NCBI GenBank assembly: GCA_041879365.1
Contig: CP089923.1
Coordinates: 1,399,095-1,463,094, forward strand
Source: Nodosilinea sp. LVE1205-7
Lineage (GTDB): Bacteria > Cyanobacteriota > Cyanobacteriia > Phormidesmidales > Phormidesmidaceae
DNA: 64,000 nt
Reading direction: 5' to 3'
In this document: one piece after another, positions 1-64,000 of the stretch
Position numbering within the stretch: position 1 is the stretch's first letter
How the letters are laid out: each line of letters begins with the position of its first letter
Position numbers and translations under genes: made by a program
The notes under the pieces: model-generated
Databases searched by the model: none
What the model was told of the DNA's origin: nothing
The model's input: the letters and a program-made list of their open reading frames with translations, nothing else

Positions 1-138
1 CAGCGCTTTATTCAACGCTTTGAGCAGGTGGAAGCCGCCCTGGACAAGCCCCTCAGCGACTATAGTGGGGCCGAATTAGAAGCCCTCTGGCAAGCGGCCA
101 AGGCTACCCTGGGTCAGGGTAGCAGTCAAGACTCCTAG
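1..138 (+). CDS. C-terminal fragment of a MazG-like nucleoside triphosphate pyrophosphohydrolase (partial, runs off window start)
   Basis: Frame-1 translation ...EQVEAALDKPLSDYSGAELEALWQAAKATLGQGSSQDS* resembles a MazG C-terminus; no start codon inside the window. Confidence 0.4.
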   Translation, partial: QRFIQRFEQVEAALDKPLSDYSGAELEALWQAAKATLGQGSSQDS

Positions 139-168
139 GGCATCCCAACTAGAACCCTTACATACCCC

Positions 169-1161
169 ATGGTTACCCCGATTACCTATAGTCCGGCCTA
201 TACCCTGGTACCCACCTACGAGTGCTTTAACCGCTGTACCTACTGTAATTTTCGGGTCGATCTGGGCCAGGCAGGCTGGATCGATGGGGCTCAGGCCCGC
301 TCCCAAATTGAAATAGCCCAGAGCCAGGGGGTGATAGAGGTTTTAATCATGAGTGGGGAGGTGGCCCCCCATAGCCCCCAACGGCAGGACTGGTTTAACC
401 ATATTTATCAACTCTGTGAATTGGTCCTGGAGGTCGGCCTTATACCTCATACCAATGTCGGCCCCCTATCCCACCAGGAGATGGCTCGATTGCAACAGGT
501 AAATGGGTCCATGGGGCTGATGCTGGAGCAGCTAACCCCCGATCTTTTACAAACGGTGCACCGCCACGCCCCCAGCAAACATCCCCAGGTGCGACTACAA
601 CAGTTGGCTCAAGCCGGAGAGCTACAGATTCCCTTTACCACGGGGCTACTGCTGGGTCTGGGGGAGACAGAGGCGGATTGGCGAGACGCCCTGGTGGCGA
701 TCGCTAATCTGCACCAGCGCTACGGCCACATCCAGGAGGTAATTCTCCAACCCCATAGCCCTGGCCAGCGGCAGCTTCACCCCGGTCAACCACTGGCGAC
801 CCAGCAGTTACTCCAGGCCCTGAACCTGGCCAGGGAGCATTTGCCCGCCGCCATTACCCTCCAGGTGCCCCCCAACCTGATCGACCAGTCCAGCCTACTG
901 GCGGCGCTGGCGGCGGGTGCCCGCGACCTGGGGGGGCTGAGTCCGGTGGATGAGGTGAATCCTGACTATAACCACCCCCAACCGGCCCACCTGGCCAGGA
1001 CGATCGCCCCAGCGGGCTGGCAACTCCAACCCCGGTTGCCGGTTTATCCCCAGTACGACGATTGGCTGCCCCCGGCCCTGAGATCGCCGGTGCGGGACTG
1101 GCGGCGGCGACTAACCCAAGCACAGGATTTGCAACCAGCGGCGCTTCCGCTAAGATGCTGA
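169..1161 (+). CDS. cofG: 7,8-didemethyl-8-hydroxy-5-deazariboflavin (FO) synthase subunit CofG, radical SAM
   Basis: 330 aa ORF with the radical SAM CxxxCxxC motif (ECFNRCTYCNF) near the N-terminus and CofG-like downstream conservation. Confidence 0.75.
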   Translation: MVTPITYSPAYTLVPTYECFNRCTYCNFRVDLGQAGWIDGAQARSQIEIAQSQGVIEVLIMSGEVAPHSPQRQDWFNHIYQLCELVLEVGLIPHTNVGPLSHQEMARLQQVNGSMGLMLEQLTPDLLQTVHRHAPSKHPQVRLQQLAQAGELQIPFTTGLLLGLGETEADWRDALVAIANLHQRYGHIQEVILQPHSPGQRQLHPGQPLATQQLLQALNLAREHLPAAITLQVPPNLIDQSSLLAALAAGARDLGGLSPVDEVNPDYNHPQPAHLARTIAPAGWQLQPRLPVYPQYDDWLPPALRSPVRDWRRRLTQAQDLQPAALPLRC

Positions 1162-1186
1162 CACAGTCATTTAGGGGGACGACGCC

Positions 1187-1288
1187 ATGGAGAAAACCAA
1201 CCCCCAGACCTGTCCGGTCTGCGGTGTAAAAATTTTAGTGGGCACCGTGGGGGGATTGGGTCCTGTTTGCCGCTGGCCCCCCTGGTAA
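1187..1288 (+). CDS. Possible small (33 aa) zinc-ribbon-like peptide immediately after cofG
   Basis: ATG 6 bp after a GGGGGA purine tract; MEKTNPQTCPVCGVKILVGTVGGLGPVCRWPPW*. Contains a C6 run, so the true length is uncertain (one extra C would give an ~89 aa product). Confidence 0.2.
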   Translation: MEKTNPQTCPVCGVKILVGTVGGLGPVCRWPPW

Positions 1289-1424
1289 CCGCGCCCGGCT
1301 CTACGATCGGGTGTGTCGCTACGTCACCAGGCCCGACTGCATTAACAAAAATGTTGGCGACCAATCTCCTCCAGCCCCCCGACTATAATCAAAGAGTGAT
1401 AAAAAACCAGGCAGAGTTGCTGCT

Positions 1425-3612: not shown

Positions 3613-4580
3613 TTACCCAAGAGTCCTGGGCGGCACACTCACAACTCGAAAACCGATGGAGGTGGTGCGGACGTCGGGGATGCCGTAGGTCCGAGAGGCG
3701 GAGCGACAAGCCCAGGGAAGGTCGCGCCAAGAACCGCCGCGTAGGATCCGATATTTGTCTTTCTCATGTTTTGGCGCAAAAACATAAGAACCGCCGCTTA
3801 GCATCCGGAGTGTGTTTTTTCTGCCTCGGCATCAACCCAGGCGCTACCATCAGCCGGTGCGCCTTCGTAGTTGTCGTGGAAGTGATCCAGGCACCACTCA
3901 GAAACGTTGCCGTGCATATCGTAGAGGCCAAAGCCATTAGGGGGGAAGATTCCCACATCGGTGGTTTGCGCTCGGAATGCTCCCCTTGGTCCCTGACCAT
4001 AGAACCCTGGATAGGTTAGGCTCTCGTAGTACTCCAAGTCGCTGCCCCGATAATTAGCCAGATCGGTGGTAATTGTATCGCCAAAATAAAAGGGCGTGGT
4101 GGTACCGGCCCGACAAGCGTATTCCCACTGGGCTTCGCTGGGCAGGGTGTAGGGTTGGCCTAGTCTTTGAGATAGGCGATCGCAAAATTCCACTGCATCG
4201 TTCCAGGAAACACTTTCCACTGGGCGTTTATCCCCCTTGAAGTGGGCAGGGTTGTTGCCCATGATGGCCTGATATTGAGCCTGGGTGACGGGGTATTTAC
4301 CCAGGGCAAAGGCTGTCAGGGTGACGGAGTGGCGGGGCAGTTCTCGGGCAAACCACTCTTTGTACTTCTCTTCCCCAACCTGACGGATCAGTTCCGCCTT
4401 TTCCGCCTCGGTTTGGCCCATCATAAAGCTGCCGCCAGGAATCGCCACCATATCCAGGGTGACGCCCTGGCCCAGGTCCAGGGTTTGGTAGGGGGCGCTG
4501 GCCTGTTTACGGTTGATGATCTGCCCCTGGGGGTTAACGGTCACCACCTCAAAGCTAAACAGTACTGCTTTCTCCACCAT
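3613..4580 (-). CDS. Second FGE/SUMF1-family paralog, apparently frameshifted at a T6 run (about 3814-3819)
   Basis: ORFs 3798-4580 and 3613-3804 together give an FGE domain (…WEYACRAG…NGFGLYDMHGNVSEW… / RILRGGSWRDLPWACRSASR…FRVV). Lengthening A6 to A7 on the coding strand restores AEAEKNTLRMLSGGSY. Confidence 0.7.
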
Positions 4581-5089: not shown

Positions 5090-5535
5090 ATGTCTATTCG
5101 CCTTTATGTTGGAAACCTATCCAGGGATTTGCAACGCCAGGACTTTGAGAATGTGTTTGTTGCCTACAACGATGATCTGGTTTCGGTGAAGCTGATCGCG
5201 GATAAAAAAACCGGCAAATGCAGGGGCTTTGGCTTTGTAACGGTAAAAACCGAAGAGAAAGCTGATGAAATTGTGGCTCAACTCAATGGTTATGTCCTGG
5301 AAGATACTCCTTTAAAAGTTGAAAAAGCTCTCCCCGAACCAAGCCAGAGGGAGAAGCAGAAGAAGTTGAAACCAACCCCATTGTCCCTGTCAATGGTAAA
5401 CGGGCCAGGGGCAATGGCCGTAAGCCCTCCTCTACCGATCAGTCCAGCAGTGTTGTGGTCCAGCCCGATCCACGGTGGGCCGATAAACTGGAGCAGTTGA
5501 AGGCTATGCTGGCGGCTCAAGCCACCTCTAGCTAG
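5090..5535 (+). CDS. rbp: RRM-type RNA-binding protein (cyanobacterial Rbp, type II with the C-terminal PDPRWADKL motif), frameshifted at a C4 run (about 5332-5335)
   Basis: N-terminal RNP motifs (LYVGNL, RGFGFV). C-terminal 60 aa read in frame 1 (…QPDPRWADKLEQLKAMLAAQATSS*); C4 to C5 joins the frames. Confidence 0.75.
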
Positions 5536-6124: not shown

Positions 6125-8312
6125 ATGGCTATGGCTGTTCCACCCCAGGATCCAACTTCCCCTAACTACACCGATCCAGCCTACTACATTAATCGGGAGT
6201 CGAGCTGGCTGGAGTTTAACCGTCGAGTCCTGTGGGAAGGGCTTGATCGCCGCACTCCGTTGTTGGAAGCCCTGAAGTTTTTGGCGATCTTTAGCATTAA
6301 CCTGGACGAATACTTTATGGTGCGGGTAGCCGCCATCAAACAGCAAATCGGGGCCCAGGTCAATTCCCTCTCCGCCGATGGACTCAGCCCGCTACAGCAG
6401 CTTGCCCTAATTGGTCAAACTCTGCGGCCTATGATTAACCAGCAACACCAGGGCTTTTTCCGTCGTTTGCGGCCACAAATGGCGGGCCATGGCATCCATC
6501 TGGTTACCTACGGTGAACTGAGCCCCGATCAACGTCAGTTTATGGGGACCTACTTTGAGGAACAAATTTTTCCAGTTTTAACCCCGCTTATTGTTGATGC
6601 CGATCATCCTTTTCCCTACGTTTCTAACCTGAGCTTAAACCTGGTGGTAATTCTTAAGAGATCGCCAGACCGGTGGATCCCAGATTGCCCGGGTCAAAAT
6701 ACCCAAAGTTTTACCCCGGTTCATTACCCTGCCAGAACCCCTCTCTAGCCAACTCGATCCTCCCTGTCACTGGCTTGGAGTGCCCCTGGAGGAGGTGATC
6801 GCTCACCATCTTCAGACTTTGTTCCCGACCCTAGAGGTGCAGGGACACTACCTATTTCGCCTTACCCGTAACGCCGATTTAGTGGTGGCAGAAGCTGAAG
6901 CCGAAGATTTGATGTTAGCGATCGAGCAAGAACTCCGGAAACGCCCTCTAGGGGGATCGGCAGTGCGGTTAGAACTTCAACGCCACACCCCTAGGGCAAT
7001 TCGGATCCTGCTAAGGCGGGCCCTGGACCTGGAACCCCAGGACATTTATGCAATTGATGGTTGGCTGGGGCTGGGGGATTTAATCGCCCTCACCAGTCTA
7101 GCGATACCAAGCTTAAAGGATCCACCCTGGCTGCCGACCATTCCCCCAACCCTGGAAAAATTACCCCATCTAGTTGAGGAAGACAATAATTACCCCTCAC
7201 AGCAGGCAGAAACTTTTTTTGCCCTGGTGCGTCGCCAGGACCAGCTATTCCACCATCCTTATCATTCCTTTGTGGCCACTGTACAGCGGTTTATTATCCA
7301 GGCCGCCTATGATCCCCAGGTACTGGCCATTAAAATGACCCTTTATCGTATCGCTGGCGGCTCTCCCATCCTCAAAGCCCTGGTGGGGGCGGCGGCCAGG
7401 GGTAAGCAGGTAACGGTGCTGGTAGAACTTAAGGCTCGCTTTGGCGAAGAAAACAATATTAACTGGGCTCGCCACCTGGAACAGGCGGGTGTCCATGTTG
7501 TTTACGGTTTGATCGGCCTTAAAACCCATGCCAAGATGGTTATGGTGGTGCGCCGTGAGGGTGATACCATTACCCGTTACTGTCATTTAGGGACGGGGGA
7601 CTACAATGCTGAAACCGCCTCTGTTTATACCGATTTAAGCCTGCTTAGCGCCCAACCTGAGCTCGGATCGGACCTGACTGAGCTATTTAACTATCTCACC
7701 GGCTATTCTCGCCAGCGCAGTTATCGACAACTGTTAGTCGCCCCCCTAACCCTGCGCCAGAGCCTGGAGAACTTAATCCAGGGGGAAATAGAGCGGGTTC
7801 AACGGGGAGAAAAGGGCCAGATTATCGCCAAAATGAATACCCTGGTTGATCCAGACCTGATTGCCAGACTTTACCAGGCTTCTGCTGCCGGGGTCTCGAT
7901 TGATTTAATTGTGCGAGGAACTTGCTGCCTCCGCCCTGGTCTGGCCAACATCAGCGAGAACATTCGGGTCATCAGCATTGTTGGTCGCTTTTTAGAACAT
8001 TCCCGGATCCTTTACTTTAGGCGCGGGGGTGATGAAATTTTTTGGCTGGGCAGTGGAGACTGGACCGCCAGTAATTTAGATCGCCGGGTAGAAGTGCTGG
8101 TGCCGGTTCGCGATCGCAACCTTCAGGCCGAACTCCGATTGATTTTAGATCTGGCTCTGGCAGATCATCGTCACGCCTGGGATTTGGCTGCTGACGGTAG
8201 TTACCATCAGCGCCAACCAGCCCCCCAAACCAGCCCCTGCGACTCTCAACTCAGTCTGATCAACCGGGCCAGTCACCTAACCGTTGGAATCGACCCACGG
8301 CACCAGAGGTAA
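6125..8312 (+). CDS. ppk: Polyphosphate kinase 1, split into two ORFs by a frameshift near 6650-6700
   Basis: N-terminal ORF (…YYINRESSWLEFNRRVLWEGLDRRTPLLEALKFLAIFSINLDEYFMVRVA…) and C-terminal ORF (…QIARVKIPKVLPRFITLPE…HAKMVMVVRREGD…) together make about 720 aa of PPK1. The two HKD-like phospholipase D motifs are present. Confidence 0.9.
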
Positions 8313-10623: not shown

Positions 10624-13310
10624 GTGACCCTATCTCTCGATTCTTTGCTAACGCCAGAGATTCTCAAGCCAGCTCGCTATCTCGGTAACGAGTTGGGAGC
10701 GGTCCATAAGCCCTGGTCCTCAGCTCTGGTGCGCTGGGTTCTTACCTACCCGGAAATATACGAGGTAGGGGCTTCTAATTTAGGTCATATCATTCTCTAT
10801 AACATTCTTAATAGCCAGCCCCGCCAGCTGTGCGATCGCGCCTATCTACCGGCCCCTGACCTGGCCGCTAAGCTCAGACAGTCCCAAACCCCCCTATTTG
10901 CGGTTGAGTCTCGTCACCCCCTGGTAGCCTTCGACATTGTCGGTTTCAGTTTAAGTTACGAATTGGGTGCCACCAATATTCTAGAAATGCTTTCTCTGGC
11001 GGGCATTCCTCTAACCTGGCAAGAACGGGCTCAGTCTCAGTTAGAAGGGACCCCACCCTGGCCCCTAATTTTCGCCGGTGGCCAAACCGCCACCTCCAAT
11101 CCCGAGCCCTACGCTGATTTCTTCGACTTTATCGCCCTAGGCGATGGTGAGGAGCTACTGCCTGAAATCGGCCTGGTTGTGGAGGAAGGTAAGGCCGCTG
11201 GATTAAGTCGGGAAGCCCTACTGCTGGATCTGGCTCAAGTACCCGGAGTCTACGTACCCCAGTTTTATACTCTAAGGGATGACGGGTCAGTGCAACCCCA
11301 TCGATCAGATGTGCCTGAGCGAATCCTGCGCCGGGTAGCCACCCCGATGCCAGCCTATGCCATGGGTTTGGTTCCCTACGTGGAAACGGTCCACGATCGC
11401 CTGACAGTGGAAATCCGACGGGGATGCACCCGGGGCTGTCGCTTTTGCCAGCCTGGGATGCTTACCCGGCCAGCCCGGGATGTAGAACCAGAGGCGGTGG
11501 TAGAAGCCATTGAAACTGGCATGGGTAAAACTGGCTATAACGAGTTTTCCCTACTTTCCCTCAGTTGTTCCGACTACCTGGCTTTGCCAGCGGTGGGAGT
11601 AGAAATTAAAAATCGTTTGAAAGACGAAAATATTTCCCTATCCCTACCCAGTCAGCGGGTAGACCGCTTCGATGAAAATATTGCCCATATTGTCGGCGGT
11701 ACCCGTCTAACCGGGCTGACCTTTGCCCCTGAAGCCGGTACCCAGCGTCTGCGAGACATTATTAATAAGGGGCTAACCAACGAAGAATTACTGCGGGGCG
11801 TTAGTACAGCCTACCAACAGGGATGGGATCGGGTTAAGCTCTACTTTATGATTGGCCTGCCAGGAGAAACGGAAGAGGATGTCCTTGGTATTGGGGAAAC
11901 AGTTCGATGGCTGCGCCAGTCTTGCTATATCAAGGGACGGAAGCCGCTTTCCTTTAACATCACCATTTCCAACTTCACGCCCAAACCCCATACCCCTTTC
12001 CAATGGCATTCCGTTTCTACCCAAGCATTTCAACATAAGCAAACCCTGCTGCGGTCCGCCTTTAAAGGCGCGGGCTGGGCTAAGGTGAACTTTACCGATG
12101 TGCGGATTTCCGCCATGGAAGATTTCGTTGGCCGTGGCGATCGCCGGTTGGCGGTGGTGGTACGACGAGCTTGGGAATTGGGAGCTGGTATGGATGCCTG
12201 GTGGGAAAGCCTGGATACCGCCTTTCAAGCCTGGTCCCAGGCCATCGATGAGGCGGGCTTAAGCTGGAAATATCGTCAGGTAGACCAGGGTGAATGGCAG
12301 GGTAGCGCCGATCAATCCTGGCCCGATCTGGCGGCTCCCCTACCCTGGGATCACCTCGACACCGGAATTGATAAAACCTGGCTACAGCAAGATTTACAGC
12401 GAGCTCTGGAGGCGATTACCGTACCCGACTGTTCCTTTGAGGGTTGTTCCCACTGTGGGGTGTGTGGGCCTGACCTGGGCCACAACCAGGTCATCCCGCC
12501 GCCCCCGATTCCGGTTTTTATCGGTCACGGTCAGCCCGATCACACCAGGGTGCAGCGCCTCCGCCTCACCCTGGGCAAGTTGGGATCCATGGCCCTGGTT
12601 AGTCACCTCGATTTAATGCGCCTCTTCGATCGCGCCCTGCGTCGAGCCAGCCTACCCATTTCCTTTACCGGCGGTTTTCACCCCGGTCCCCGAGTATCGC
12701 CAGCTAATGCTCTGCCCTTGGGGGTAACCAGCACGGCAGAGGTAGTTGACTTTGAGCTAAAACAGCCTATCGATCCAGAGGCTTTCCGCCAGCGGCTGGC
12801 GGCCCAACTGCCCGATGAAATTCCCCTGTATGGGGTGGTAGAGGTGCCCCTAGATAGCCCCTCCGCCACTAAAGTGCTGGAACAGGCTGAGTACTATCTG
12901 CGGCTAGCTGCCGATAGTCACCCCCATGCCTGCCCCCCTGGCAGGATTGGGTTACCGGTTTGCTGGCCAGGGAGACCCTGACCTGGGTGAAGCAGACTAA
13001 ATCCGGTCGATCTCAAACCATTGACCTGCGCCCCCTGCTTTATGCCATGGACATTGTTACCGTGGCCCCCTGGCCTGTACCGGCCCTGGCCCCCGAGCTC
13101 CAGGAAGTGGTGATCCGATGCCTGGGCAGTTGTCGCAATGACGGCAACTTACTACGTCCTGATCAGATCGCCTGGATGCTGGAGCAGGTGGCTGGAGAGC
13201 CTCTAATCATTCGCCATCGCCACCGTTCCCGACTGGTTCTGAGGGAACCCTCCAGACAGCAGGTTAACTGTGCGGGGCCAGAGACTGCCAGCCAAACCCC
13301 GCCCCCGTAA
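10624..13310 (+). CDS. B12-binding-domain radical SAM protein fused to a DUF2344 (TIGR03960/TIGR03936-like) C-terminal domain; frameshift at a C6 run (12933-12938)
   Basis: Radical SAM core CTRGCRFCQ plus an upstream B12-binding-like region. The C-terminal DUF2344-like part continues in ORF 12960-13310 (…LARETLTWVKQTKSGRSQTIDLRPLLYAMD…); C6 to C7 restores ACPPWQDWVTGLLARE. Confidence 0.8.
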
Positions 13311-15636: not shown

Positions 15637-15661
15637 GGGGGCACCCCGATAGGATGCCCCC
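15637..15661 (-). terminator. GC-rich hairpin (GGGGGCA…TGCCCCC) between convergent genes; likely urtA terminator
   Basis: 7 bp G/C stem with an 11 nt loop, followed on the minus strand by a T-rich TATTTGTT. Directly preceded by a perfect 16 bp tandem duplication AAATGCTGGTCTAACA x2 (15601-15632). Confidence 0.4.
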
Positions 15662-17826: not shown

Positions 17827-19347
17827 CTAAACAGCTGTCTTTAGGCTATCGATCTTACGGTTGAATAAATCAATAAAGATCATGATGACTCGCTTGGGGC
17901 GGGTTCTAATGTTAGCACTCAAGGCCATGCCGGATTGTAATTTGATCGATCGCCCCTGAATGTTAATGGACTGCTGGTCTAGGGTAACATCGGCGGGAAA
18001 GCGATACTGGGGATGAATCTGGTCAGGGGGTAGGGCATCGGAACCGATGTGGGTCAGGGTACCCTTAACATCTCCAAATTCACTGTAGGGAAAGGAATCA
18101 ATACGGACATCGGCCTTCATACCCTCCTTCACAAAGCCAATATCGCGGTTAGTAATAAACACCTTGGCCACCAGGGCATCGGTGGGTACAATTTCCATAA
18201 TCGGTTCGGTAGAGTTGGCCACGTAGCCGGGCTGGTTCGCCTTCAAATTAAACACCACGCCACTGACTGGGGCCTTGAGTTCCTGGTATTGTAATTTCTG
18301 CCGCAGCTCTGTAATCTGGCTATCCAATTCTTGCAGCCGTTTTTCGTTTTCCAGCATAGTTTTAGTGATCTGGCTATCGATGGTGGCAATTTCATTGTTG
18401 TTGGCACCAATACGCTTTTGCAGATCGTCTTGGGAGGCGATCTGGGTGTTACGGAATTTTTCCCGAGCCTGGGCGATCGCCAGTTGCAGGCGCTGCTCCT
18501 CCTGAATCAGCCGATTCAATTCGGTGCGCCGGTTGTTAACCTCCTGCTTTTGCTGTAGGTAGGGAATTGCACCAATCGCCCCCCGCTCCGCCAGGGGGCC
18601 AATGCGCACCAAAATTTCCTGATTCACCTCCAGGGCTTCTCGAGCATTGGCTCGCTGTACCTGGGTTTGGACCAGCTGGCGATCTAGTTGGTTTACTTCC
18701 AGGTTGGCAATACTCAGGCGAGAGGTAAGTTCCTGGCTGGCGGCGGCGAGGCGATCGCGCTGGGCGACAGATAGCTGGGTGATCCCCTGCCGATCTCCCC
18801 CAACTGGGTCCGATAGAGGGCATTCTCCGCCACCAGGGCAGCCCGGTTACTGGTCAGTTGAACAATTTCTGGGGCGATATCCATGGGGGCTCTAACCTGG
18901 TCTTGATTGGCTAGTTGGGAACGATAGAAGTCATTTTCCTGAGTTAATTTACGTCGAATACTTTCCAGGGAAGTTAGTTGGGCCTGGGTGGCTTCAGGAT
19001 TCGAGGGTGATCAGGCGATCGCCAGCCTGGACAGCCTGACCTTCTTTGACAAACACCTGCTGCACCACCCCTCCCACGGGAGCCTGAACTGGCTGGACTA
19101 GGCCCTTGGGCTCCAATTTACCCTGGGCCGGTACCGCTTCTTCAAACTTAGCCAGGCAAGACCAGGCTACGGTTACTACGGTTACCCCAACAATACTCCA
19201 CACCACCGCTCGCGACCAATGGGAAGCCTGACGTAGGATTACGGGTTTATCAAAGACTTCACCAGAACGGGAGGACTGGGTGGAAATAATCACATTGTCA
19301 GCATCGGGAGAAGTCTGGCCAGGGGAAGAAGTCACCATAGGATCCAT
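17827..19347 (-). CDS. HlyD-family type I secretion periplasmic adaptor (membrane fusion protein), two frameshifts (C5 run 18797-18801 and near 18990-19000)
   Basis: N-terminal TM plus GDRLITLES, central coiled coil, and a C-terminal beta domain (…VKGTLTHIGSDALPPD…). The three ORF pieces join when single bases are restored. Confidence 0.8.
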
Positions 19348-34906: not shown

Positions 34907-36189
34907 TGTACCCCGTTGTCTAGACAGTTAGGGTAGGAATTTAAAGTAGAGTCGCCATTTAGTTCATTTTCTTTCTCTACGTCTCTTTTTTACATCACTA
35001 TCCTCCTGCTTACTGAAGTAGACACTGGCTGGCGGCCTATAGTTCAGTGACTGGTGTAGCCGCTCCTGGTTATAAAACCGAAAATAACGCTCCAGATTCT
35101 CAATGGCACTTGAAACACTGTCGTAGTCTTTGAGGTAGACCTCTTCGTACTTGACGGTACGCCACAGCCGTTCCACGAAAATGTTATCAAAAGCCCGGCC
35201 CTTGCCGTCTTGAGAAATTTGGATCGCTCGCCCCTCTAACGCCCCTGTAAAGGCCAGGCTGGTAAATTGACTGCCCTGATCTGAGTTAAAGATCGTAGGC
35301 TGACTGACCTGCAGCGCCTCCTCCAGGGCCACCAAACAAAAATGCACATCCATGGTATTCGATAGCTGCCAGGACAGTACATAACGGCTGTACCAGTCCA
35401 TCACCGCTACCAAATACACAAACCCATTCGCCAGCCGAATATAGGTAATATCCGTGCTCCACACCAGATCGGGGCGGTCAATACACAGCCCCCTCAGCAA
35501 GTAGGGATACCGGCGAGCGTTGTCCCCAGCTATCGTTGTCCGGGGCTTCGGATAGATCGCCTGAATCCCCATCTGACGCATGATCCGCGCCACCCGCTTA
35601 TGATTGACCGCCTCGCCCTGTTGTCTCAACCAGGCGGTCATTCGGCGCACCCCGTAAAACGGCGTCGCCGTGTATTGTTCGTCTATTCGTTCCATCAGAT
35701 GTAACTCGTAAGGGTCAATCGCCACTGGTTCGTAGTACCAGCTAGACCGCGCCAGCTCTAGTAACTCACATTGTCGACGGATACTCAGCTGAGGATGCTC
35801 TGGCTCCACCAGCCGTCGTTTATTCGCCAGCGGTAAGGCCAGATTTTTTTTCAACCAGTCCACTTCTACCTTCAGTTGACCGATTTGTTGATAAAGTTGG
35901 GCGGTTAGCTCTTCCTGGTCTTTACGGCCCTGGGCTCGCCGTGACGAAAAAATGCCAGGAAGCTCATCGAGCACCTGCTTCTTCCATTGGTTGATCTGGC
36001 TGGCATGGACGCCATACTCACTCGATAGTTCGTTCACAGTTTTTAGCCCCTTGATGGCCTCTAGAGCCACCTTAGCCTTGAAGTCCGCACCATGTCGCTT
36101 GCGCTGCATTTCCCTGTTGATCTCCGTATAGCTACTGAATTGCTGGGCAGCGACTCTATCTTATTTCCCTGTACAGTTTCCGGGGTACA
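34907..36189 (-). mobile_element. IS3-family insertion sequence (1283 bp) with terminal inverted repeats TGTACCCCG…
   Basis: The left end TGTACCCCGTTG… matches the reverse complement of the right end …CCGGGGTACA, and both ends carry AGAGTCGC. Encodes an OrfAB-type transposase. Confidence 0.8.
34964..36109 (-). CDS. IS3-family transposase (HTH OrfA part fused in-frame to the DDE integrase-core OrfB part)
   Basis: 381 aa: HTH region (…ALEAIKGLKTVNELSSEYGVHASQINQWKK…), leucine-zipper-like segment, then an rve/DDE core (…WSTDITYIRL…NSDQGSQFTS…). An A8 run (35855-35862) sits exactly where IS3 elements carry their -1 frameshift window. Confidence 0.85.
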   Translation of the reverse strand: MQRKRHGADFKAKVALEAIKGLKTVNELSSEYGVHASQINQWKKQVLDELPGIFSSRRAQGRKDQEELTAQLYQQIGQLKVEVDWLKKNLALPLANKRRLVEPEHPQLSIRRQCELLELARSSWYYEPVAIDPYELHLMERIDEQYTATPFYGVRRMTAWLRQQGEAVNHKRVARIMRQMGIQAIYPKPRTTIAGDNARRYPYLLRGLCIDRPDLVWSTDITYIRLANGFVYLVAVMDWYSRYVLSWQLSNTMDVHFCLVALEEALQVSQPTIFNSDQGSQFTSLAFTGALEGRAIQISQDGKGRAFDNIFVERLWRTVKYEEVYLKDYDSVSSAIENLERYFRFYNQERLHQSLNYRPPASVYFSKQEDSDVKKRRRERK

Positions 36190-37581: not shown

Positions 37582-37819
37582 AACTACCATGCCCAGAGCC
37601 GCCATTATTAGCCCGATCAGTCCTACACCTTTGGCGACGAACTATAGCAGATTTCATTCGGGCGAAGTGCGATGTGAACACCCCCTGCCCCCTTGCCAAG
37701 GCTACGGTGTACAGCGTCAAACCCCTACAGTTAGGCGCTGGGGGGTAGGATTGAGCAATGGGGTGTCTCACTCTATGGAAAACCGCTATATACCTGAGCC
37801 CTTTTCAAATAACCCCTAA

Positions 37820-39234: not shown

Positions 39235-41025
39235 ATGGTTTCCAGTTCCTCTCTCCATCCACTCGAGCGCTTGCTACGCTATGGCCGCCGCTATCGCTAT
39301 CGAATCTGGCAGGCCAGTCTATGCTCGGTGCTAAATAAAACCTTTGACCTGGCACCCCCCGTCTTGATTGGCCTGGCCGTAGATGTTGTGGTTAAGCAGC
39401 AAAATTCCTGGATTGCCGGATGGGGAGTGAGTTCAATTGCCGCTCAGTTTACTGTGCTAGCGGTCCTAACCCTGGTGATCTGGGGTTTAGAGTCTTTATT
39501 TGAATACGCCTACGATGTGTTGTGGCGTAATCTGGCCCAATCTATTCAAAAGGATTTGCGTATTGATGCCTATGCCCACTTGCAAGGCTTGGATATGGTT
39601 TATTTTGAGGATCGCAGTAGTGGTCGGCTGATGGCCATTTTGAATGATGACATCAACCAACTAGAGCGGTTTCTAGACCGGGGTGCCAATGAGGTTTTGC
39701 AGGTCATTACAACGGTGATTTTGATCGGAGGTGCCTTTTTCCTGCTAGCACCAGGGGTGGCCTGGTGGGCCATGCTGCCCATGCCCTTAATTATCTGGGG
39801 GCGATCGCCTTTCAACGCCTGCTGGCCCCTCGCTACGCTCAGGTGCGAGAGCAGGTAGGCTTACTCAACGGTCGGCTGGCCAATAATTTGGCTGGCATGA
39901 TGACCATTAAAAGTTTTACCGCTGAGAATTACGAAATTGAGCGGGTCAGTGCAGAAAGCGAAGCCTACCGCCTCAGTAACCAGCGAGCGATCGCCTTAAG
40001 TGCCCTATTTATCCCCCTGATTCGGGTGTTAATTTTATTTGGCTTTACCGCCACCCTAGTTTACGGGGGCCTGGCTACGGTAGCTGGCCATCTAGCGGTG
40101 GGTACCTACAGTGTACTGGTATTCATTACCCAGCGGTTGCTCTGGCCCCTTACCCGGTTAGGGGAAACCCTGGATCAATATCAACGGGCTATGGCTTCAA
40201 CCCAGCGGGTTTTAGATCTACTGGATACCCCCATAGCCATTTGCCCTGGTCAACAGCGCCTGGCTGCCAGCCAGATTCAGGGCAACATTCAGTTCGAGGC
40301 GGTGAGCTTTACCTACCCCAATCGAGAGCCTGTTATTCAGCGTTTAAATCTATCTATACCAGCCGGGCAAACCATTGCCATTGTGGGGTCAACGGGGTCT
40401 GGCAAAAGTACCCTGGTAAAGCTGCTGTTGCGTTTTTATGAGGTTGGTGAGGGTCGGATTACTCTAGATGGCCTGGATATTAGAGACCTTAACCCTGAGG
40501 ACCTCCGGCGGGCGATTGGCCTGGTCAGTCAGGATGTGTTTTTATTCCACGGCACCGTGGCGGAAAATATTGCCTACGGTAGCTTTGCGGCCAGTCCTGA
40601 AGCGATCGCTTGGGCGGCCCAAATGGCAGAGGCTGACGGGTTTATTCAGGCCTTACCTCAGGGCTACCATACCCTGGTGGGGGAGCGGGGTCAAAAGCTT
40701 TCGGGAGGGCAGCGCCAGCGGCTGGCGATCGCCCGGGCTATTCTCAAAAACCCGCCGATTCTGGTCCTGGATGAGGCCACCTCGGCGGTGGATAACGAAA
40801 CCGAGGCGGCGATCCAGCGATCCCTGAGAAAAAATCACCCAAAACCGTACTACCATTGCCATTGCCCATCGCCTTTCCACCGTCCGTAATGCTCACTGCA
40901 TTTACGTTATGGAAGCAGGTCAGCTGGTGGAAGCCGGTACCCACGAAGAGCTCCTGACCCAGCAGGGACTCTATGCCAGCCTGTGGCAAATTCAAATGGG
41001 AGGACGGGCCGGTAAGCAATTCTAG
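39235..41025 (+). CDS. ABC exporter, fused permease and ATPase (MsbA/type-1 exporter-like); two frameshifts (G5 run 39796-39800; A6 run near 40832)
   Basis: Six-TM domain followed by an NBD with Walker [10 protein letters not shown], signature [14 protein letters not shown] and Walker [13 protein letters not shown]. The C-terminus (…[35 protein letters not shown]…) is read in another frame. Confidence 0.85.
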
Positions 41026-46909: not shown

Positions 46910-49900
46910 CTAAGCCGCCTCAGATTCCCCCAGTTCGGTTAGAAACTCCAGAGCTCTAGCAATATAGGTGGCGCACTGACTCGGGGACAGTTGATAAAAG
47001 CCCTGCCAGGCAGCCGCCTTATCGCTTTCATAGGTAGATGCCCGCTGGGGCTGGTGGTCTAGCCAACCTATACGGACGGCATGGCCAATCAACACATCCA
47101 GGTAGAGATAATCTTCGAAGTAGAGGTCGGGATTAACCTTGAAAATTTCTCCCATCTCCCGTAGTGCCTCCAAATTGACATGGCGGTATTCAGGGGCTTC
47201 AATCTTGCTCAACAAATGGGTAATACGACGCTCGAAGTTTTGCTCACCAGGGGTCATCTCGGACAGAATAGAGGCGCTATCCAGCCGGTTTTTACGGTCT
47301 AGCTTGTTACCAATTACAATCCCTTTGCAGTGTTTGAGTACCTCCCACAATTGGGTATAAAACTCTGGGGGAATGCGAGTGATTTCCCCGTCGATTACCC
47401 GCTTGCGCCACCAATCCTGGGGGCTGGTGATGGCTTCCGGCGGAGATTTTTCGACTTCGGCTGGCAGCACCTCCCAATTGATATCGCTGAGGGGCTTTAC
47501 CCGCAAAGATTCCCGTTGAAAAATCGATTGGTTGAGTCCACTAAACCCGGCCAGTACCTGACGCAGGCGAGTTTTGAGTTCAAAGGGGCTGAGACTGAGC
47601 AGCTCCCCGTAGGCTTCATCCTGGGGAAGCTGGCGTTCTCGGGCCAGTTCGCTGGTCAGGAGCAGCAGCAGGTAGCCTACCCTTAGGGTGAGAAGACCCT
47701 TGAACAGGCTGGGCTCAGCTTTCATCAGCAGGCTCAGGTCAATCAAGACCTCCTGGGTGAGGACATGGTCGCGCACATCGTCACCGCAGAAGGTACGAAT
47801 TTTCTCAATAATTTCTCCATGGGCCATGGGTTCCGTAATCAGAGAGGCTTCACTGTAGGCCTTGCCCACGGAAATTTGCTTCTGTCGAACCAGTAACTCT
47901 GTCACCGCATCCGATAGACTGATATCGGTTTTTTCCAGTAGACCGGCTGTGCGCCGCAGAATATCCCACTGTTCTAGCTGACTGGCCTTAGCGTAGATTT
48001 CATCCAGCAGATCGGTGACCGTTACCCGTCGCTGGGGACCCCCCAGACCTGTATCAAAACCCAGACCTTTGAGGTGCTTGAGGGTGCTGAGCAACTCCAC
48101 CTGGACGTAGACATTATTAGAGGCCTGGAGCTGGGCCAGCAGGCGCTCCAGGTTAGTTTCTCGCTCCAGGTCAAATTCTTCTACCACAGATAACGGCCCA
48201 TCCCGATTGGGCTCAAAGCCCAGGTAGGCAGTCCAGGGGGAAGGATAGATAATGGCGCTACTACCCAATTGGTAGCTGTTGAGATTATCTACTCGCTCCA
48301 GGCTGGTGGTTATGATCAGCTGGTGTAGGGGGGCTAGTTTAACCGGTACATGGTCACAACGTCCCGTCATGAGTTCCTGCATCAGTGCCAACAAGGGAGA
48401 TTCATGGATGGGCTTATGGCCTAGTTGGAACATAGCGTGGCTGAGGAGCAAAACCACCGTAGGGCGACCCGGTTCCCGCCAGTGGTCGTAGATGTAGGCC
48501 AATTCGCTGCGGATTTGGGCCACCAGAAAATGGTAGTCGAGGGTGAGATAAAATCGCTCTTGATCAAGAAAGGAGGGCAGAAATACGACCTGATGGTCTT
48601 GAATACGAAAAATACGAGAGGTGGTTAAGCTGCGCAGGCGACGGATAGGGCGTCCACTCAGACTTAGGGTGGGATTTTTACCAATTTCGGCATAAATAGC
48701 CGATAGCTCAGTGGCTGAAAAGACCTGAATAGGCGCAATTTCTGCCGGAGTTTGGGTGGTTAGTCCGTAGGTGCTGAGTTCTTCCCGCAGGGCCTTATCT
48801 TCTGCCAGCAAAGCTAACTGCAGCACCGGGTAGCGTTGTTCTCCCACCAAATGGTGGCGGCCCAGGGGTCTCAGATCCTCGGGTTTAAGCAGGCCATCGT
48901 CGAGCAGTTGGCCCAACAGGTAAAGGCTCTGGGCCCAGACCAGGGGAAGGTTGTCGTTGGGCTGGCGGTTTTGACTACCAGGTTGCTGGCGTTCCAGCTC
49001 TAGCTTATCGGCGGGGACGTAGTAGAGTTCGGGTAAGAGGGCCTGACCCCCATGATCGATCGCCAGGTCCGCCAGACGCTCTCGATAGTCGGCAATGGCA
49101 TCGCGATCGCCACTAAATAAACTATCCAGCCAGAGGTAGGTAAAAAATAGGGGCCACTCACACTCGATATGCTCGAATTGTTTTAACTCCTCCGGTTCGT
49201 AGTGCAGGCGACTGGTGTCTTCAATTACGGTCTGGTGGCCATCCCGCAAAAACCGCTTACAGCCATAGCGGCCCTGGAGTTTATCGATAATTTTCTGGCG
49301 GGTCTGGCGCACCACATCGGCACTCTCTATGGCGAAGGCCGGAAAGCCAATCACACTCAGCAAGGCCCCATCCACCTCCTTGGAGCCAGACTCACGAGGC
49401 AGGAGGGATTCCAGGGTAATTCGGGCTCGAGCGATTTCGTCAGGCAGAACATGAATCATGGAAGCCTGGCCTCCCCGCATACCAAACAGGTTCATTCCCC
49501 GCATGGCTTCCAGGGCAGCCTTAGCCATGCCTACGGAACTGGCGTTCAGCTCTGGCTTACCGTGGTTAATTTTGTTGCCCCGCTCCCAAATCCCGTAGTC
49601 GGGAGTCCGGTAGGCGCGACCAATGTAGTACACCAGGTTCTGGACAAAATTAACTTCGTCCAAGGTATAAATAATTTGCAACCCAGAGGCGGTCATCTGA
49701 GCCAGCATCAGCAGAAACACAGAGGTGGCGTCGATTTGTAGATGCCCCCATTCTCCGTCTCCTACCACGGGGGTACCGGTGGCGGTGTCATACTTGGCGT
49801 GGAGGGCTGCCAGGGGGTCCTGCCGTTCTTTAAAGCGCTCGACTTTAGAGGCTTGCCGCAGCATGGCCAGGAGTAATCCCCGCATTAGTTTGACTACGCT

Positions 49901-55413: not shown

Positions 55414-56978
<1,565 letters not shown>

Positions 56979-57245: not shown

Positions 57246-57532
57246 GGGTATGGGTCTCCCTAAAAATTCTCTTAAAGGCAGTAAATACAAACATGGGTAG
57301 TATAACTTTCCCCAGCCCTCAATTGTCTGGGGGGTTGTTTAGAGGCATTAAGTGCTACCGTTCCCATTCAGGTCATTAGTTAAGGGGCACTGCATAGCAA
57401 TAACTCCGTCGCCAAACTATCTAGGGAAATCTTGTCTATCCTTTGCCAGTGTGTTTTATTCTTATATAGTTGAGTACAGTTGAGAATCGGAGCATATCCC
57501 TCTTGAGTCCGATTTATGACTGGATAGTCTCT

Positions 57533-57614: not shown

Positions 57615-57639
57615 TTGTCATAATTGGTGAAGGATAATC

Positions 57640-57776: not shown

Positions 57777-57825
57777 CGAGGTGGGATCAGCTCGACCGAT
57801 CCCACCTAATTTTAAACACCCAGTC

Positions 57826-58523: not shown

Positions 58524-58568
58524 GGGTATGAGCCAGGGTTTGCTGCATTCCCTATTAGTCACCGTTAC

Positions 58569-59498: not shown

Positions 59499-59636
59499 AT
59501 TGCTTTTATCGTTTATCAGACTGACTGCGTATTAATAATAAATACAGAGATATTTGAAGCCGTCAGAATAATTTGGCCTCACAAGTGTGAAAACTTTCTA
59601 TAAATATGGTTCCCAGCTTTGCAGATATAATCCCCA

Positions 59637-60525
59637 TTGATACTCATGAATGGTGAACTAGCAGCCTTAGGGGCCGCCTTTCTATGGGCTGCCGCTACCA
59701 TGATGTTTGGTCAATTGGGGCAGTTTCTATCACCCCTGCTACTGAACCTGACTAAGGGGACGATCGCGAGCGGTTTAATACTGCTAACCCTGGTCCTGGT
59801 GGAGGGTCCCCCCACCGGCCTAGCGCCCAGGCCCATACTTTTACTCATCTTGAGCGGCATGGTAGGCATCGGTCTAGGGGATACCGCCTACTTTACCGCC
59901 ATTAACCGAATTGGAGCCCGGCAGGCCCTATTACTAGAAACCCTGGCTCCAGCCATAGCTGCTGGGCTAGCTTGGATCCTATTAGGAGAAAATATTAGTC
60001 TGCGCTCCTGGACCGGCATACTCTTTACCCTGGCAGGGGTGAGTTGGGTGATCAGCCAGCGGCTATCCTCACCTCAAACCACTACCTGGCAATGGAATTG
60101 GGGCCTTGTTTACGGAATTCTGGCCGCGCTGGGCCAGGCCACTGGAGCAGTCCTATCCAGGGCGGCCCTGGCCCACAGTGCGATTAATCCCCTGTGGAGT
60201 TCCCTTTTACGACTGAGCGGTGGGGGAGTTTTGATTCTGGTAATTCTGGTTGGAAAGGGGGACTCAGGAATCAGATCAAGCCATTACAGAACTCGAGGGT
60301 CCTGGCCATGGTGGGATTGGCAGCCCTACTGGGCACCTACCTGGCAATTTACTTACAGCAATTTGCCTTGCAGCATAGTGCTGCCGGTATCGCCCAGGCT
60401 CTAACGGGCACCAGTCCTCTATTTATATTGCCGATGGCGGCGGCCCTGGGGACCGGATCACTGGCCGTACAGTAGTCGGAGTCGGCCTGGCCCTGGTGGG
60501 TATATTTCTGCTGTTTCAGCCCTAG
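59637..60525 (+). CDS. EamA/DMT-superfamily transporter, two homopolymer frameshifts (G5 run near 60257; G4 run near 60445)
   Basis: Ten-TM DMT-like hydrophobicity pattern. Restoring one G at each site gives the continuous read …VGKGGLRNQIKPLQNSRVLAMVGLAALLGTYLA…AALGDRITGRTVVGVGLALVGIFLLFQP*. Confidence 0.65.
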
Positions 60526-60558
60526 GGAGAGCCTCACTTAGGCAGCCCCATTGACCTG

Positions 60559-61892
60559 CTAAAAGACGAACTGTAAAACCACCTGACAGCTTTTCTCCTG
60601 GGAATTAAGAGGTTGAGGATTAATCTGAATCTGGCGAATGAATTCCCGAAAGAAAAAACGCCGTTCAGCTTCCGAGAGATTTAACCAGAATTGGGGAATA
60701 GCCACCGACTGGGAAAGTTCTTGCAAATTAACTGGAGGCAGTTGGGCCCGCCGCTGTTCAAGCTGGGCAATTTCTCCCTGAAGTTTATAACGGCGCAGAG
60801 CAGCCGTATCTGGATCCAGCACTCCTTCTTGAACTAAGCCGGATAACTGTTGGAGAACCCCCTGGCGTTGCTGAATTTGGGTTTGGATCTCGGTGGCAGG
60901 GGTAACCGGGGCCCCACTCTGGGGGAACGGTTGTAATTGGGCCACGGCCTGGGGTAGATCGTGACAGATTTGTTCAATGATAGCGTTGAGGGCCCGATCG
61001 TAGGGAATGGCCCGACAGCGGGGAGAATGGGGACAATTGGTTGGCCTCAAGTAAAGGTAGGCCTGACTCTGACCCCGTCGGGTAGTAGTAGTAATGGTGA
61101 GTCTTCCCCCACAGGTCTGACAATAAACTAATCCCGCCAGGGATCGGGCAGCCCCTGCTGTTCGAGAGGGTAACTGACTGTTGCGGCGCAGTAGGCGATC
61201 AATCTGAGCGGCTTCCTCGCGACTAATAATGGCTGTATGGGTATCACGAATGACTTGGCCATCCTGGTATTGCAGGTCTCCCCGATAGACCGCATGGGTG
61301 AGCCAGCGACGGCCCGTAGAAACGGCGATGCGTTTGCCAAAACGATGATCCACAAATCGCACGGCACCGCGCAGTGATCCGTAGAGTAAAAACTCGTTAA
61401 CAAAGGCGGTAATCACCGGGGCGGTAGTGCGATCGACAAGGTAACGATCCTGGCCACGGCGATAACCGTAGGGAGCTTTACCAGGGGAGGTAGGGCCTGC
61501 AAACGATTACGGGCATGTCCAGTACGTAGTTGGCGGCGGCGCAGGCGATCGGGTAAGCTAGCCAGGGCCTGTAAACTACCAGCGGCATCAGGAATCTGCT
61601 GTGTCAGGTCGATCGCTTCTGAGGCGACACTCACAACTTGACTACCCATGGCTTGCAGGGTCTGGCAACGGGCTTCGATCTCAGCCAGGTTATCTCCCAG
61701 GGAGTCCAATCCTGCCACCAGGATCAAGTCGGCAGGATGCTCCTGGTTGTCCGCAATCAGCTGGGCCAATTGGGGACGGTAGCTGGGTTCGGCAGGTAGC
61801 CAGGTATCCTGGTAGAGTCGTTCCAGGGTATAACCCCAGGCTGGGGAGGGCGGTTGGCCGCACTCCAGGTAGTAATAGGCAACCACACGCAT
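60559..61892 (-). CDS. Serine-recombinase-family protein (resolvase-like N-domain, recombinase domain, Zn ribbon, coiled coil) lacking the canonical catalytic Ser; frameshift at a G4 run (61485-61488)
   Basis: The N-domain begins MRVVAYYYLECGQ where resolvases have …Y.RVST.Q. Downstream motifs (…GKAPYGYRRGQDRYLVD…VYCQTCGGRL…) match large serine recombinases. One added C on the coding strand joins ORFs 61413-62138 and 60559-61416. Confidence 0.6.
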
Positions 61893-62016
61893 AGGCTCAA
61901 ATGCCTGGTAAAGAGACTTTGGTAAGGCCAGAAAGGAGTGATCGGGATTGTATATCAACAAGTACCCCACTCTCCCATCACCATGGCAAGATAGGGGGTA
62001 GAGTAGGGGGCTTCTG

Positions 62017-62978
62017 GTGCAGATTACATTTCTCGGAACCAGTTCTGGCGTACCCACCCGGTCTCGCAACGTCTCCAGCGTGGCTCTGCGGTTACCCCAG
62101 CGGGGGGAAGTATGGCTGTTTGACTGCGGCGAAGGCACCCAGCACCAGTTTTTGCGTAGCGAGTTTAAGTCCAGTCAGATTCGTCGTATTTTCATCACCC
62201 ATATGCACGGCGACCATATTTTTGGGCTGATGGGGTTACTGGCCAGTTGCGGACTGGCGGGTAATCGACAGCAGTGTATCGATATCTATGGTCCCAAACC
62301 CCTGGGTGATTATTTGCAGGCCTGTCGGCGGTATTCCCACACCCACTTCACCCTCCCTATTCAGGTCCATGGGGTAGAACCTGGGGTAGTTTTTGAGGAT
62401 CGAGAATATCGAGTCCTATGCGATCGCCTGGAGCACCGGATTCCCGCCTACGGCTATCGGGTAGAAGAACGGGATCGACCTGGTCACTTCGATGTTAAAC
62501 GGGCAGAGGCCCTGGGCATTCCCCCGGTCCCATCTATGGTCAGCTGAAGCAGGGACTACAGGTGACCCTACCTAATGGTCGAAAGGTCAAGGGTACCGAT
62601 CTCTGTGGGCCTGACCTGGTAGGTCGCAAACTGGTGTACTGTACCGATACGATTTATTGCGATCGCTCCGTTGCCCTGGCCCACCAAGCCGATGTCTTAA
62701 TTCACGAAGCCACCTTTGCCCACCAGGATGCTGGACTGGCCTACGAGCGTCTGCATTCCACCTCTACCATGGCAGCCCAGGTAGCCCTTGGGGCCCAGGT
62801 GAGACAGCTCATTATGACCCACTTTAGTCCCCGCTATGCCCCCGGCAACAACGTTCAACTAAGCGATCTACTGACGGAAGCCCAGGCAATTTTCCCCAGT
62901 ACCACCATGGCCTACGACTTTATGATCTACAACATTTTACGCCAGGAGGAAAAAACTGCCCTGTCTTCGGCTTCGTAG
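62017..62978 (+). CDS. rnz: Ribonuclease Z (tRNA 3' processing endoribonuclease), frameshift near 62526-62530
   Basis: Metallo-beta-lactamase His motif ITHMHGDH and the rest of the RNase Z fold are present. The C-terminal half continues in ORF 62562-62978; one added G gives [19 protein letters not shown]. Confidence 0.85.
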
Positions 62979-63421
62979 GTACTTCTGGAGGCTGGGACTG
63001 ATTGACCTTGAATACGGCTAAGACGTTGCCGAACCTGACTAAGCTGACGTTGGTCATCAACGGCACCACGGGGAACCGGAATGTCTTGATTAGGCCAGGT
63101 CAACAGATCATGACAAGGACAGGGAAAGGAATTTAATCCTAAGGTGGGGATAGACACCGGCATCGTGCAGCGGGCACAGTCCTGCACATCCCAGGCGGAG
63201 GAAAGCATGGCGGCGATGGTCTGAATGGTGCCCTTGAGGTAGCAATCCTGACCCTGGGTAACCATGATTTGATCCCAGCAATCTTCAAAGTCCTGGCTGT
63301 AGTTGCCCTGAAAAAAAACTGGGGAGGGCAAATAATCACCGCGATCGCCAGATAGTACCACAGGCTTACCCAACTGAAACCAATGGGCTAAAAAGTCCCG
63401 AACCTGAGCTTCAGATGCCAT
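62927..63421 (-). CDS. Hypothetical Cys-rich (Zn-binding-like) protein
   Basis: 164 aa with Cys clusters DCWDQ…DCYLKG…CARCTMPV…FPCPCHDL; no family recognised. Confidence 0.4.
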
Positions 63422-63705
63422 AGTTGTATACCGTAGGTGAGGAGAGGATTTCTATCTATGGCCCCATCCTAGCCTTTTTAATAACTGCCGGGCTCCATCT
63501 GTATCGATTCTTTCTAAAGTCTCCAGGTTTGGGCCTTAGGGCACCTTTGCCCTGAATCGGCAGGTTAAAATCAATTATAGAATTTTGGTCATAGCCCTGG
63601 GGACCTGGACCTGGTTAACGGATCAACTCCCAGATCTGGCTAGCCCTCCTTTCTGTCCCTTATCCGCAGCTACAGCTTCAGGAATTCCTTAATTTTCTCC
63701 ATCCA

Positions 63706-64000
63706 TGAGTGAAAACACCGTCACCGTCAATCGAGCTGAACTGGAAGCCTTGAACGATCAACTATCGAAACGTTTTATCAAGCTTGATCCAGGAGGCTAC
63801 TTTCTCATTTATCTGGATCAGCAGCAGGGATTAATTTGTGCCAAACATTTTACTAATACCATTAACGATCTGGGTCTGGCCTGTGATCCGGCCACCGGCC
63901 TACCCCTACCGGTACGGGGCAAGGTTCAACGGCAAGCGACTCTGATCTATAGTGGGCGAACTGCCAAGGAGCTTTGCATCGCTATTTTTGAAAACCCTCA
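63706..64000 (+). CDS. Hypothetical protein (N-terminal fragment, runs off window end)
   Basis: ATG at 63706 and an open frame to the window edge (MSENTVTVNRAELEALNDQLSKRFIKLDPGGYFLIYLDQQQGLICAKHF…). Confidence 0.4.

Follow-up and report, generated by a model that had tools for sequence, protein, structure and literature searches.

The locus and the reference sequences

The DNA analysed here is a 64 kb stretch of cyanobacterial DNA from Nodosilinea sp. LVE1205-7 (the window, in whose numbering all coordinates are given), which belongs to a single contig of 3.79 Mb obtained from a metagenome. It has a G+C content of 52% and carries four tRNA genes, and an Rfam search of the window returned these four and no further matches. 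About one third of the genes in the window look split by frameshifts, among them urtA, lysS, the polyphosphate kinase gene ppk and the genes encoding RNase Z, an adenosine deaminase and a C39-peptidase ABC exporter, and it is the nature of these frameshifts that is addressed below. The same stretch contains an IS3-family element in which orfA and orfB are fused in frame across a run of adenines.

Candidate frame switches were collected from lists of open reading frames (ORFs) and by scanning codon usage in each of the six frames. Since runs of four or more identical bases occur once per ~53 nt in the window, a run in the vicinity of a junction is weak proof when taken alone, and a base-level comparison was therefore required. 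The same-species short-read set comprised contigs L162, L169, L173, L175 and L181 of the metagenome-assembled genome (MAG) GCA_046080705.1, the ENA contigs (k141/NODE) L170, L174, L177 and L182, and the Logan contigs L172 and L176. These sequences are 98.9-100% identical to the window and jointly span 34,565 bp of it, with 199 substitutions between the window and the short-read assemblies over that length. REEB459, a species representative, is ~80% identical at the DNA level and syntenic with the window over 10.6-22.4 kb. In the case of lysS, the reference was a metagenome contig (L082), and in the case of ppk, protein orthologues were used; a same-species intact ppk was not found in the protein collection, where the top match reached 77%.

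Frameshifted genes in the window

It was found that 18 protein genes of the window are broken, at 24 frameshift sites (Table 1). Without exception, the lesions are indels of one or two bases, with neither nonsense substitutions nor larger deletions among the 24. At 18 of the sites, a single-base run with a true length of three to eight bases is contracted, and two of these runs are short by two bases (C7 reduced to C5 in the conserved hypothetical gene and C8 reduced to C6 in lysS). Even short runs were affected, as in the second lesion of the radical SAM gene (A3 to A2) and the first lesion of the EamA transporter gene (A4 to A3). The remaining six sites are one-base insertions, located in ppk, in the aminotransferase, adenosine deaminase and ABC transporter genes and in those of the HisKA-like and HlyD-family proteins, and each of them lies inside a GATC or at most 4 nt from one.

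An earlier note on this DNA, made from its letters and ORFs, had counted more than 20 genes split by frameshifts that fall in homopolymers one base short. Split genes are indeed present in the sequence, but they number 18, with 24 sites, and the proposed form of the lesion describes the 18 contractions, except that two of these lack two bases. The run lengths that had been proposed for urtA, the radical SAM gene (lesion 1) and the C39 exporter (all against L169), for lysS (lesion 1, against L082), for the response regulator (against L162) and for the second FGE paralog (against L177) turned out to be exact. On the other hand, the view that the underlying mechanism always deletes did not survive, given that six of the 24 sites are insertions by GATC. 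The aminotransferase junction, which had been regarded as the one resolved exception, does carry an extra base in CTGAGAGG at position 50950, but it is one of these six GATC-linked insertions rather than a lone case.

The consequences for the individual products are varied. The second FGE-sulfatase paralog, of 322 aa, is cut into 260 and 63 aa, and the protein P0127 (322 aa) is otherwise 100% identical to it. In the RRM protein, the last 70 aa are out of frame in the window, while L177, with its C5, encodes a product of 148 aa. The extra base in ppk is found 3 nt before the GATC at 6660-6663 and divides the gene into segments of 207 and 510 aa, shifting the frame by +1; the three orthologues hold exactly 12 residues from SLNLVV to ARVKIP, and a one-base insertion was assigned because this spacing is reproduced only by removing one base. 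The insertion in the HisKA-like gene removes its initial 17 codons, and the two lesions of the HlyD-family gene jointly shift 68 codons to another frame. For the adenosine deaminase, same-species proteins of 502 and 552 aa are on record. The first lesion of the ABC transporter gene adjoins a copy of the palindrome GCGATCGC, and an intact protein 99% identical to its product is available (P0004); the second lesion, an insertion at 40826, is located 3 nt past a GATC. In lysS, three contractions amounting to four bases are concentrated within 420 nt of a sequence that is otherwise 93% identical to the intact copy in L082. Additionally, the GH15-family gene harbors an insertion at a distance of 4 nt from a contraction; the two cancel each other, so that the ORF remains open with one or two residues garbled. 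In the IMG consensus, described below, the base inserted at that spot is a different one.

Two further candidate splits were considered and rejected. Between 36803-36952 and 36967-37581, the upstream ORF stops at a TAG with GGAGG and an ATG downstream of it, and upstream of the FGE paralog (4583-4717) there is an ordinary gene boundary with a GGAGG ribosome-binding site. Another 20 ORFs gave either Pfam matches spanning the profiles or no match, and showed no signs of being split. Exact look-ups of three ORFs, those of the broken Sua5 gene, an SRPBCC protein and the IS3 fusion, retrieved no record. With regard to the C39 exporter, its longest ORF starts at 22433, within the tRNA-Val gene (22404-22476), and the same-species proteins start at 22391 (MVQTPPSL...), which indicates that the 14-codon extension is spurious.

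Table 1. Frame-disrupting sites, intergenic length differences and the IS3 run of the window, with the sequences used as reference
Feature	Position (strand)	State in window	True state	Reference or remark
FGE-sulfatase paralog 2	3815..3820 (-)	T6 on + strand	T7	L177, P0127
RRM RNA-binding protein	5332..5335 (+)	C4	C5	L177
Polyphosphate kinase 1 (ppk)	6653..6657 (+)	extra base within CTTAA		P0141, P0157, P0143
Radical SAM protein (881 aa intact)	12933..12938 (+)	C6	C7	L169, L002
Radical SAM protein, lesion 2	13246..13247 (+)	A2	A3	L169; 7 codons ahead of stop
Conserved hypothetical, 252 aa	14003..14007 (+)	C5	C7	L169
Sua5/YrdC threonylcarbamoyl-AMP synthase, 211 aa	14707..14711 (+)	C5	C6	L169, IMG L168
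HisKA-like protein, 252 aa	14866..14870 (+)	GATTC	GATC	L169
Intergenic run	15657..15661	C5	C6	L169
urtA, urea-binding protein, 432 aa	16427..16430 (-)	G4	G5	L169, L002
HlyD-family secretion protein, 503 aa	18797..18801 (-)	C5	C6	L169, L002
HlyD-family protein, lesion 2	18998..19002 (-)	GATTC	GATC	L169, L002
C39-peptidase ABC exporter, 993 aa	20057..20060 (-)	G4	G5	L169
Adenosine deaminase, 502 aa	26288..26295 (+)	GATCGAAT, insertion at 26293	GATCGAT	IMG L168
IS3-family transposase, slippery run	35844..35851 (-)	A8 in gene sense		in-frame orfAB fusion, 381 aa
Intergenic stretch	37681..37702	C5...C5...GGCTACGGTG	C7...C7...G7	MAG L162
Response regulator, 120 aa	38629..38635 (-)	T7	T8	MAG L162, IMG L001
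ABC transporter, 596 aa	39797..39801 (+)	G5	G6	L162, P0004
ABC transporter, lesion 2	40824..40829 (+)	CTGAGA	CTAGA	L162, L163, L164
GH15-family gene	48865..48873 (-)	G4 and a base inserted in TCTAGATC	G5	MAG L175
Class V aminotransferase / cysteine desulfurase-like, 413 aa	50947..50955 (-)	TCTCAGATC	TCTAGATC	L175, L176, P0135
lysS	56076..56082 (+)	G7	G8	L082
lysS, lesion 2	56392..56397 (+)	C6	C8	L082; frames 1, 0, 1, 0
lysS, lesion 3	56492..56496 (+)	C5	C6	L082
Intergenic site	57480..57490	GAATC	GATC	MAG L173; one-base insertion
EamA transporter, 293 aa	60254..60256 (+)	A3	A4	MAG L173 (4); Logan L172 (3)
EamA transporter, lesion 2	60448..60451 (+)	G4	G5	L173, L172, IMG consensus (all 5)
Serine recombinase	61484..61487 (-)	G4	G5	L172, MAG L181
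Intergenic run	61994..61998	G5	G6	L181
RNase Z, 320 aa	62521..62525 (+)	C5	C6	MAG L181

Intact genes in short-read assemblies

The comparison with short-read assemblies was consistent across the covered part of the window, since the frame was intact in the same-species or same-strain assemblies at all 20 covered coding sites. Proteins from these assemblies, when mapped onto the window, align in two or three frames with 96-100% identity, and the fragments downstream of the breaks are likewise 96-100% identical to intact same-species proteins. The breaks are distributed asymmetrically, with ~20 in the window against a single one in the MAG. The latter concerns SelO (window 23064; L169 position 148), where the MAG has T4 and a broken copy and the window has T3. 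This difference was not retained as a lesion of the window, whose copy is intact, and the extra base of the MAG is situated 148 nt from a contig end, which indicates that short-read references are not error-free near contig ends.

Dependence of contractions on run length

Over the 34.6 kb aligned with short-read assemblies, 22 contractions were observed in the window against one expansion. The proportion of reference runs that are contracted rises with their true length, from 1 of 1500 runs of three bases (0.07%), 2 of 482 runs of four (0.4%) and 6 of 130 runs of five (4.6%) to 6 of 34 runs of six (17.6%) and 4 of 9 runs of seven (44%, two of them by two bases); one of the two runs of eight was also contracted. 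Additionally, for 16 of the 18 deletions the true length of the affected run is at least five bases, and runs of this size make up ~3% of the sequence. The association of deletions with runs is thus far beyond chance.

These contractions are found in intergenic DNA as well as in genes. Two intergenic runs of six bases are each shortened by one base, and at 37681-37702 a series of long runs is shortened or garbled in the window (Table 1).

Insertions and miscalls at GATC

A second class of error is associated with GATC. Seven of nine one-base insertions are inside a reference GATC or at most 4 nt from one, as compared with 7.3% of the alignment columns, a proximity for which the probability by chance is ~3e-7. 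Two recurrent forms were recognized. In the first, GATC is converted to GATTC or GAATC (14866, 18998 and the intergenic position 57485), with a related insertion beside CGATC at 26293; in the second, CTAGA becomes CTGAGA shortly past a GATC (40826, 48872 and 50950).

The tetranucleotide GATC occurs 374 times in the window, against ~249 occurrences expected from base composition, and the HIP1 palindrome GCGATCGC is present in 41 copies, several errors being located within or beside them. Previous studies demonstrated that orphan methyltransferases for GATC and CGATCG are common in cyanobacteria (PMC4390886, PMC6105098). By analogy with these other cyanobacteria, methylation of GATC in Nodosilinea is a likely cause of the GATC-linked errors.

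Disagreement between two consensus versions

The assembly exists in two public consensus versions, one in GenBank, as Nodosilinea sp. LVE1205-7, with 3,787,723 bp, and one in IMG, as contig Ga0496538_1457 (metagenome 3300045937), with 3,787,690 bp; the latter was identified from an exact match to the GroEL of the window. The deposited protein XGB43550.1, a 377-aa fragment of the adenosine deaminase, is identical to the translation of the window, and the IMG contig encodes the intact protein of 502 aa; therefore, the window corresponds to the GenBank consensus and not to that of IMG.

When both versions were compared over 57 kb (7204-64000; loci L001, L168, L171 and L180), they were found to differ by six one-base indels and four distinct mismatches (listed five times). 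The indels comprise five in runs (T9/T8, T8/T7, G4/G5, G6/G5 and C5/C4) and one beside CGATC, while three of the mismatches are G/A or C/T differences within GATC and the fourth is in an adjoining TCTAGATC. In the IMG consensus, the Sua5, response regulator and adenosine deaminase genes are intact and the EamA run at 60448 is repaired. The same consensus, however, has a break of its own in the ABC transporter gene (run 40679-40683), where the window matches the MAG. Thus, two consensus sequences of one assembly differ exactly at runs and at GATC, which is a direct demonstration of calling noise.

The orfA/orfB junction of the IS3 element

The IS3 element occupies positions 34964-36109, and its run of adenines is found exactly at the orfA/orfB junction. 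The eight adenines of the window fuse both frames, whereas the IMG consensus has A9 at this run and orfA and orfB are called separately. IS3 homologues were absent from the retrieved loci; among plasmid records, homologues were found whose alignment is divided between two frames, and the closest of them, from Desulfosarcina (60% identity), has nine adenines past the same Leu codon, which corresponds to the A9 phase. Because the other consensus has A9, the A8 fusion is unreliable, as had already been suspected in the earlier note, and the orfAB fusion of the window is most likely an artefact.

Origin of the frameshifts

Considered together, these observations make it highly probable that the apparent pseudogenes of the window are consensus errors of an assembly produced from long reads only and left unpolished or under-polished, most probably from Oxford Nanopore data, and that these errors fall into two systematic classes. 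In the first class, single-base runs would be under-called, with a probability that climbs steeply with run length. In the second, one-base insertions, together with G/A or C/T miscalls, would be introduced inside GATC or within ~4 nt around it, as expected if methylation of GATC or CGATCG distorts the signal for a basecaller that was not trained on it. It was previously reported that errors in nanopore consensus sequences are found chiefly at methylation motifs and then in homopolymer lengths (PMC6591954), and the mixture of homopolymer and GATC-motif errors in the window is therefore indicative of nanopore data that were basecalled without handling of these modifications. Additionally, the recovery of a single piece of 3.79 Mb from a metagenome implies long reads. 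The proposal that the splits are assembly indels and not pseudogenes, put forward from the sequence before any comparison, is borne out by the intact genes of the short-read assemblies, by the disagreement between consensus versions, by the triple hit in lysS and by the exclusive occurrence of indels.

Some points weigh against this explanation. Slippage at homopolymers is also part of the natural mutation spectrum, so that the sequence context of the lesions, taken alone, is not decisive. The nanopore platform is deduced from the error spectrum, and a literature search on the strain name LVE1205-7 yielded no paper. The short-read MAG represents a related strain (~99.2% identity) and another DNA sample, and the lesions of lysS and ppk were judged from a relative with 93% DNA identity and from protein orthologues with 77-80% identity, respectively. 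Finally, the A3 of the first EamA lesion (60254-60256) is shared with the Logan contig L172 (SRR17230300_17171; window 57587-62525), which belongs to the same strain and differs from the window by one mismatch in 4.9 kb, and this contraction could therefore be real.

L172 has two private differences, a deletion beside GATC (60889) and a contraction from T3 to T2 (57655). Both were considered as errors of the window and rejected, since the window matches the MAG and ENA contigs at these positions. A deletion at GATC and a run contraction as private errors suggest that L172 may itself derive from long reads, possibly of the same culture or sample.

It is conceivable, but unlikely, that a minority of the lesions are real or functionally meaningful, the candidates being the EamA frameshift, an IS3 element with A9 and orfB in the +1 frame, and the GATC-linked errors. 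Speculatively, A9 would be the natural state of the IS3 run, with orfB in +1, and the fusion would be obtained from A8 mRNA generated by transcriptional slippage, not by the classic -1 ribosomal frameshift. With regard to the third candidate, the GATC-linked errors may indirectly report on a Dam-type methylation of the DNA of this Nodosilinea.

An assembly artefact arising from another chemistry, either PacBio continuous long reads or 454/Ion Torrent, is improbable. Weakly polished PacBio continuous long-read data and flow-based chemistries likewise typically show contraction of runs, predominantly of G/C runs, and a single contig of 3.79 Mb demands only that the reads be long. However, insertions and miscalls focused on GATC are a known mark of basecalling that reads modified bases at the signal level (PMC6591954) and are atypical of a polymerase-based consensus. 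As for 454 or Ion Torrent, a 3.79-Mb contig would not be expected from a metagenome.

It is more improbable still that the window reflects genuine and recent mass pseudogenisation, with frameshifts fixed in the lineage as in a decaying symbiont. The proportion of split genes, the availability of homopolymer slippage as a natural route of mutation and the EamA lesion shared with the same-strain contig are compatible with such decay. Nevertheless, the short-read contigs that are 99-100% identical to the window have intact genes at every covered site, the same lesions affect intergenic runs, and the IMG consensus restores four of the genes and has a break at another spot. The genes for lysS and RNase Z, which are essential, were hit three times and once, respectively. 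Moreover, the nonsense substitutions and larger deletions of a pseudogenisation process were not seen, the fragments retain 96-100% identity to intact orthologues, and the ~20 breaks of the window contrast with the one in the MAG.

True variation in run length within the population, in which contingency loci or hypermutability related to mismatch repair would have been sampled from different subpopulations, would account for the differences between the two consensus versions and the same-strain Logan contig at several runs, but is very hard to sustain for short runs (three to eight bases) at arbitrary positions of housekeeping genes rather than in surface or restriction genes at their 5' ends, with contractions and expansions at 22:1 where real variation would more likely be bidirectional, and with the frame-preserving length at all junctions covered by short-read assemblies.

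Other features of the window

The segment 28000-36000 has a G+C content of 45%, compared with 52-56% elsewhere in the window, and encodes an alpha-amylase-family protein, an SPFH/Band-7 protein and a large membrane protein whose tail is rich in Gly and Cys; the IS3 element is located here too. This segment may be a horizontally acquired island. Dispersed intergenic repeats of ~80-190 bp, which are 83-96% identical to each other, flank the low-G+C segment and the adenosine deaminase gene (22738-22857, 25249-25402, 27468-27829, 28419-29073 and 36371-36793), and they could resemble miniature inverted-repeat transposable elements.

At 28062-28337, ~13 tandem copies of a 21-bp unit are found (with periods of 42 and 84 bp), each with TGTGATCG. 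This array gives rise, on either strand between 27.9 and 28.4 kb, to long shadow ORFs of repetitive sequence. A separate array, with 3.6 copies of a 41-bp unit, is located at 29247-29392.

Tandem duplications of 16 nt at 9140-9171, at the start of a CPBP protease gene (unit GATGAATAAAATGCTG), and at 15600-15631, in intergenic DNA (unit GTTAGACCAGCATTTT), are present in both long-read versions and absent from the short-read MAG. Together with a 6-nt duplication of AGGTCC near 63606, they represent either strain differences or artefacts.

Implications for the use of this genome

The public MAG of Nodosilinea sp. LVE1205-7, labelled 'complete', has ~1 error per 1-3 kb, and roughly one in three of its genes is split. 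As long as it has not been polished, pseudogene counts, comparisons of gene content and features that depend on run length, such as the slippery site of IS3, are untrustworthy. Protein databases are affected as well, as the fragments XGB43529/43530 and XGB43550 have already been deposited. The class of insertions linked to GATC accounts for the lesions outside homopolymers, and it could be used as a diagnostic mark of such artefacts in other cyanobacterial long-read assemblies. The artefact itself is ordinary and already well understood; the biological interest of these lesions is low, and the value of their description is practical rather than biological.

Comparison with known systems

Pseudogene-rich reductive genomes are known from Mycobacterium leprae and 'Nostoc azollae', in which a large fraction of genes is frameshifted, as in the window. 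However, the window differs from these genomes in that its lesions are restricted to indels of one or two bases at runs or GATC, that essential genes are hit and that the fragments show no decay. Phase-variable contingency loci also change frame at single-base runs, but the runs of the window are short, located in housekeeping genes and mostly contracted, and no length polymorphism was found at them in short-read data. As for the IS3 family, in which programmed -1 frameshifting or transcriptional slippage takes place at a run of adenines, the element of the window likewise has such a run at the orfA/orfB junction. In contrast to the classic -1 arrangement, its A8 results in an in-frame fusion, and A9 would place orfB in +1, as in the Desulfosarcina homologue.

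Another known system is that of nanopore-only assemblies, as described by Wick et al. in 2019 (PMC6591954), which share with the window the dominance of indels, the under-calling of runs in dependence on their length and a class of errors tied to a motif. In these assemblies too, differently polished versions disagree and the genes are intact when short reads are available. The motif there is the enterobacterial Dcm site, CCWGG, whereas in the window it is GATC, which in many cases forms part of CGATCG or GATCTAGA. The window is further distinguished from them by the form of its motif-linked lesion, a one-base insertion that results in GATTC, GAATC or CTGAGA.

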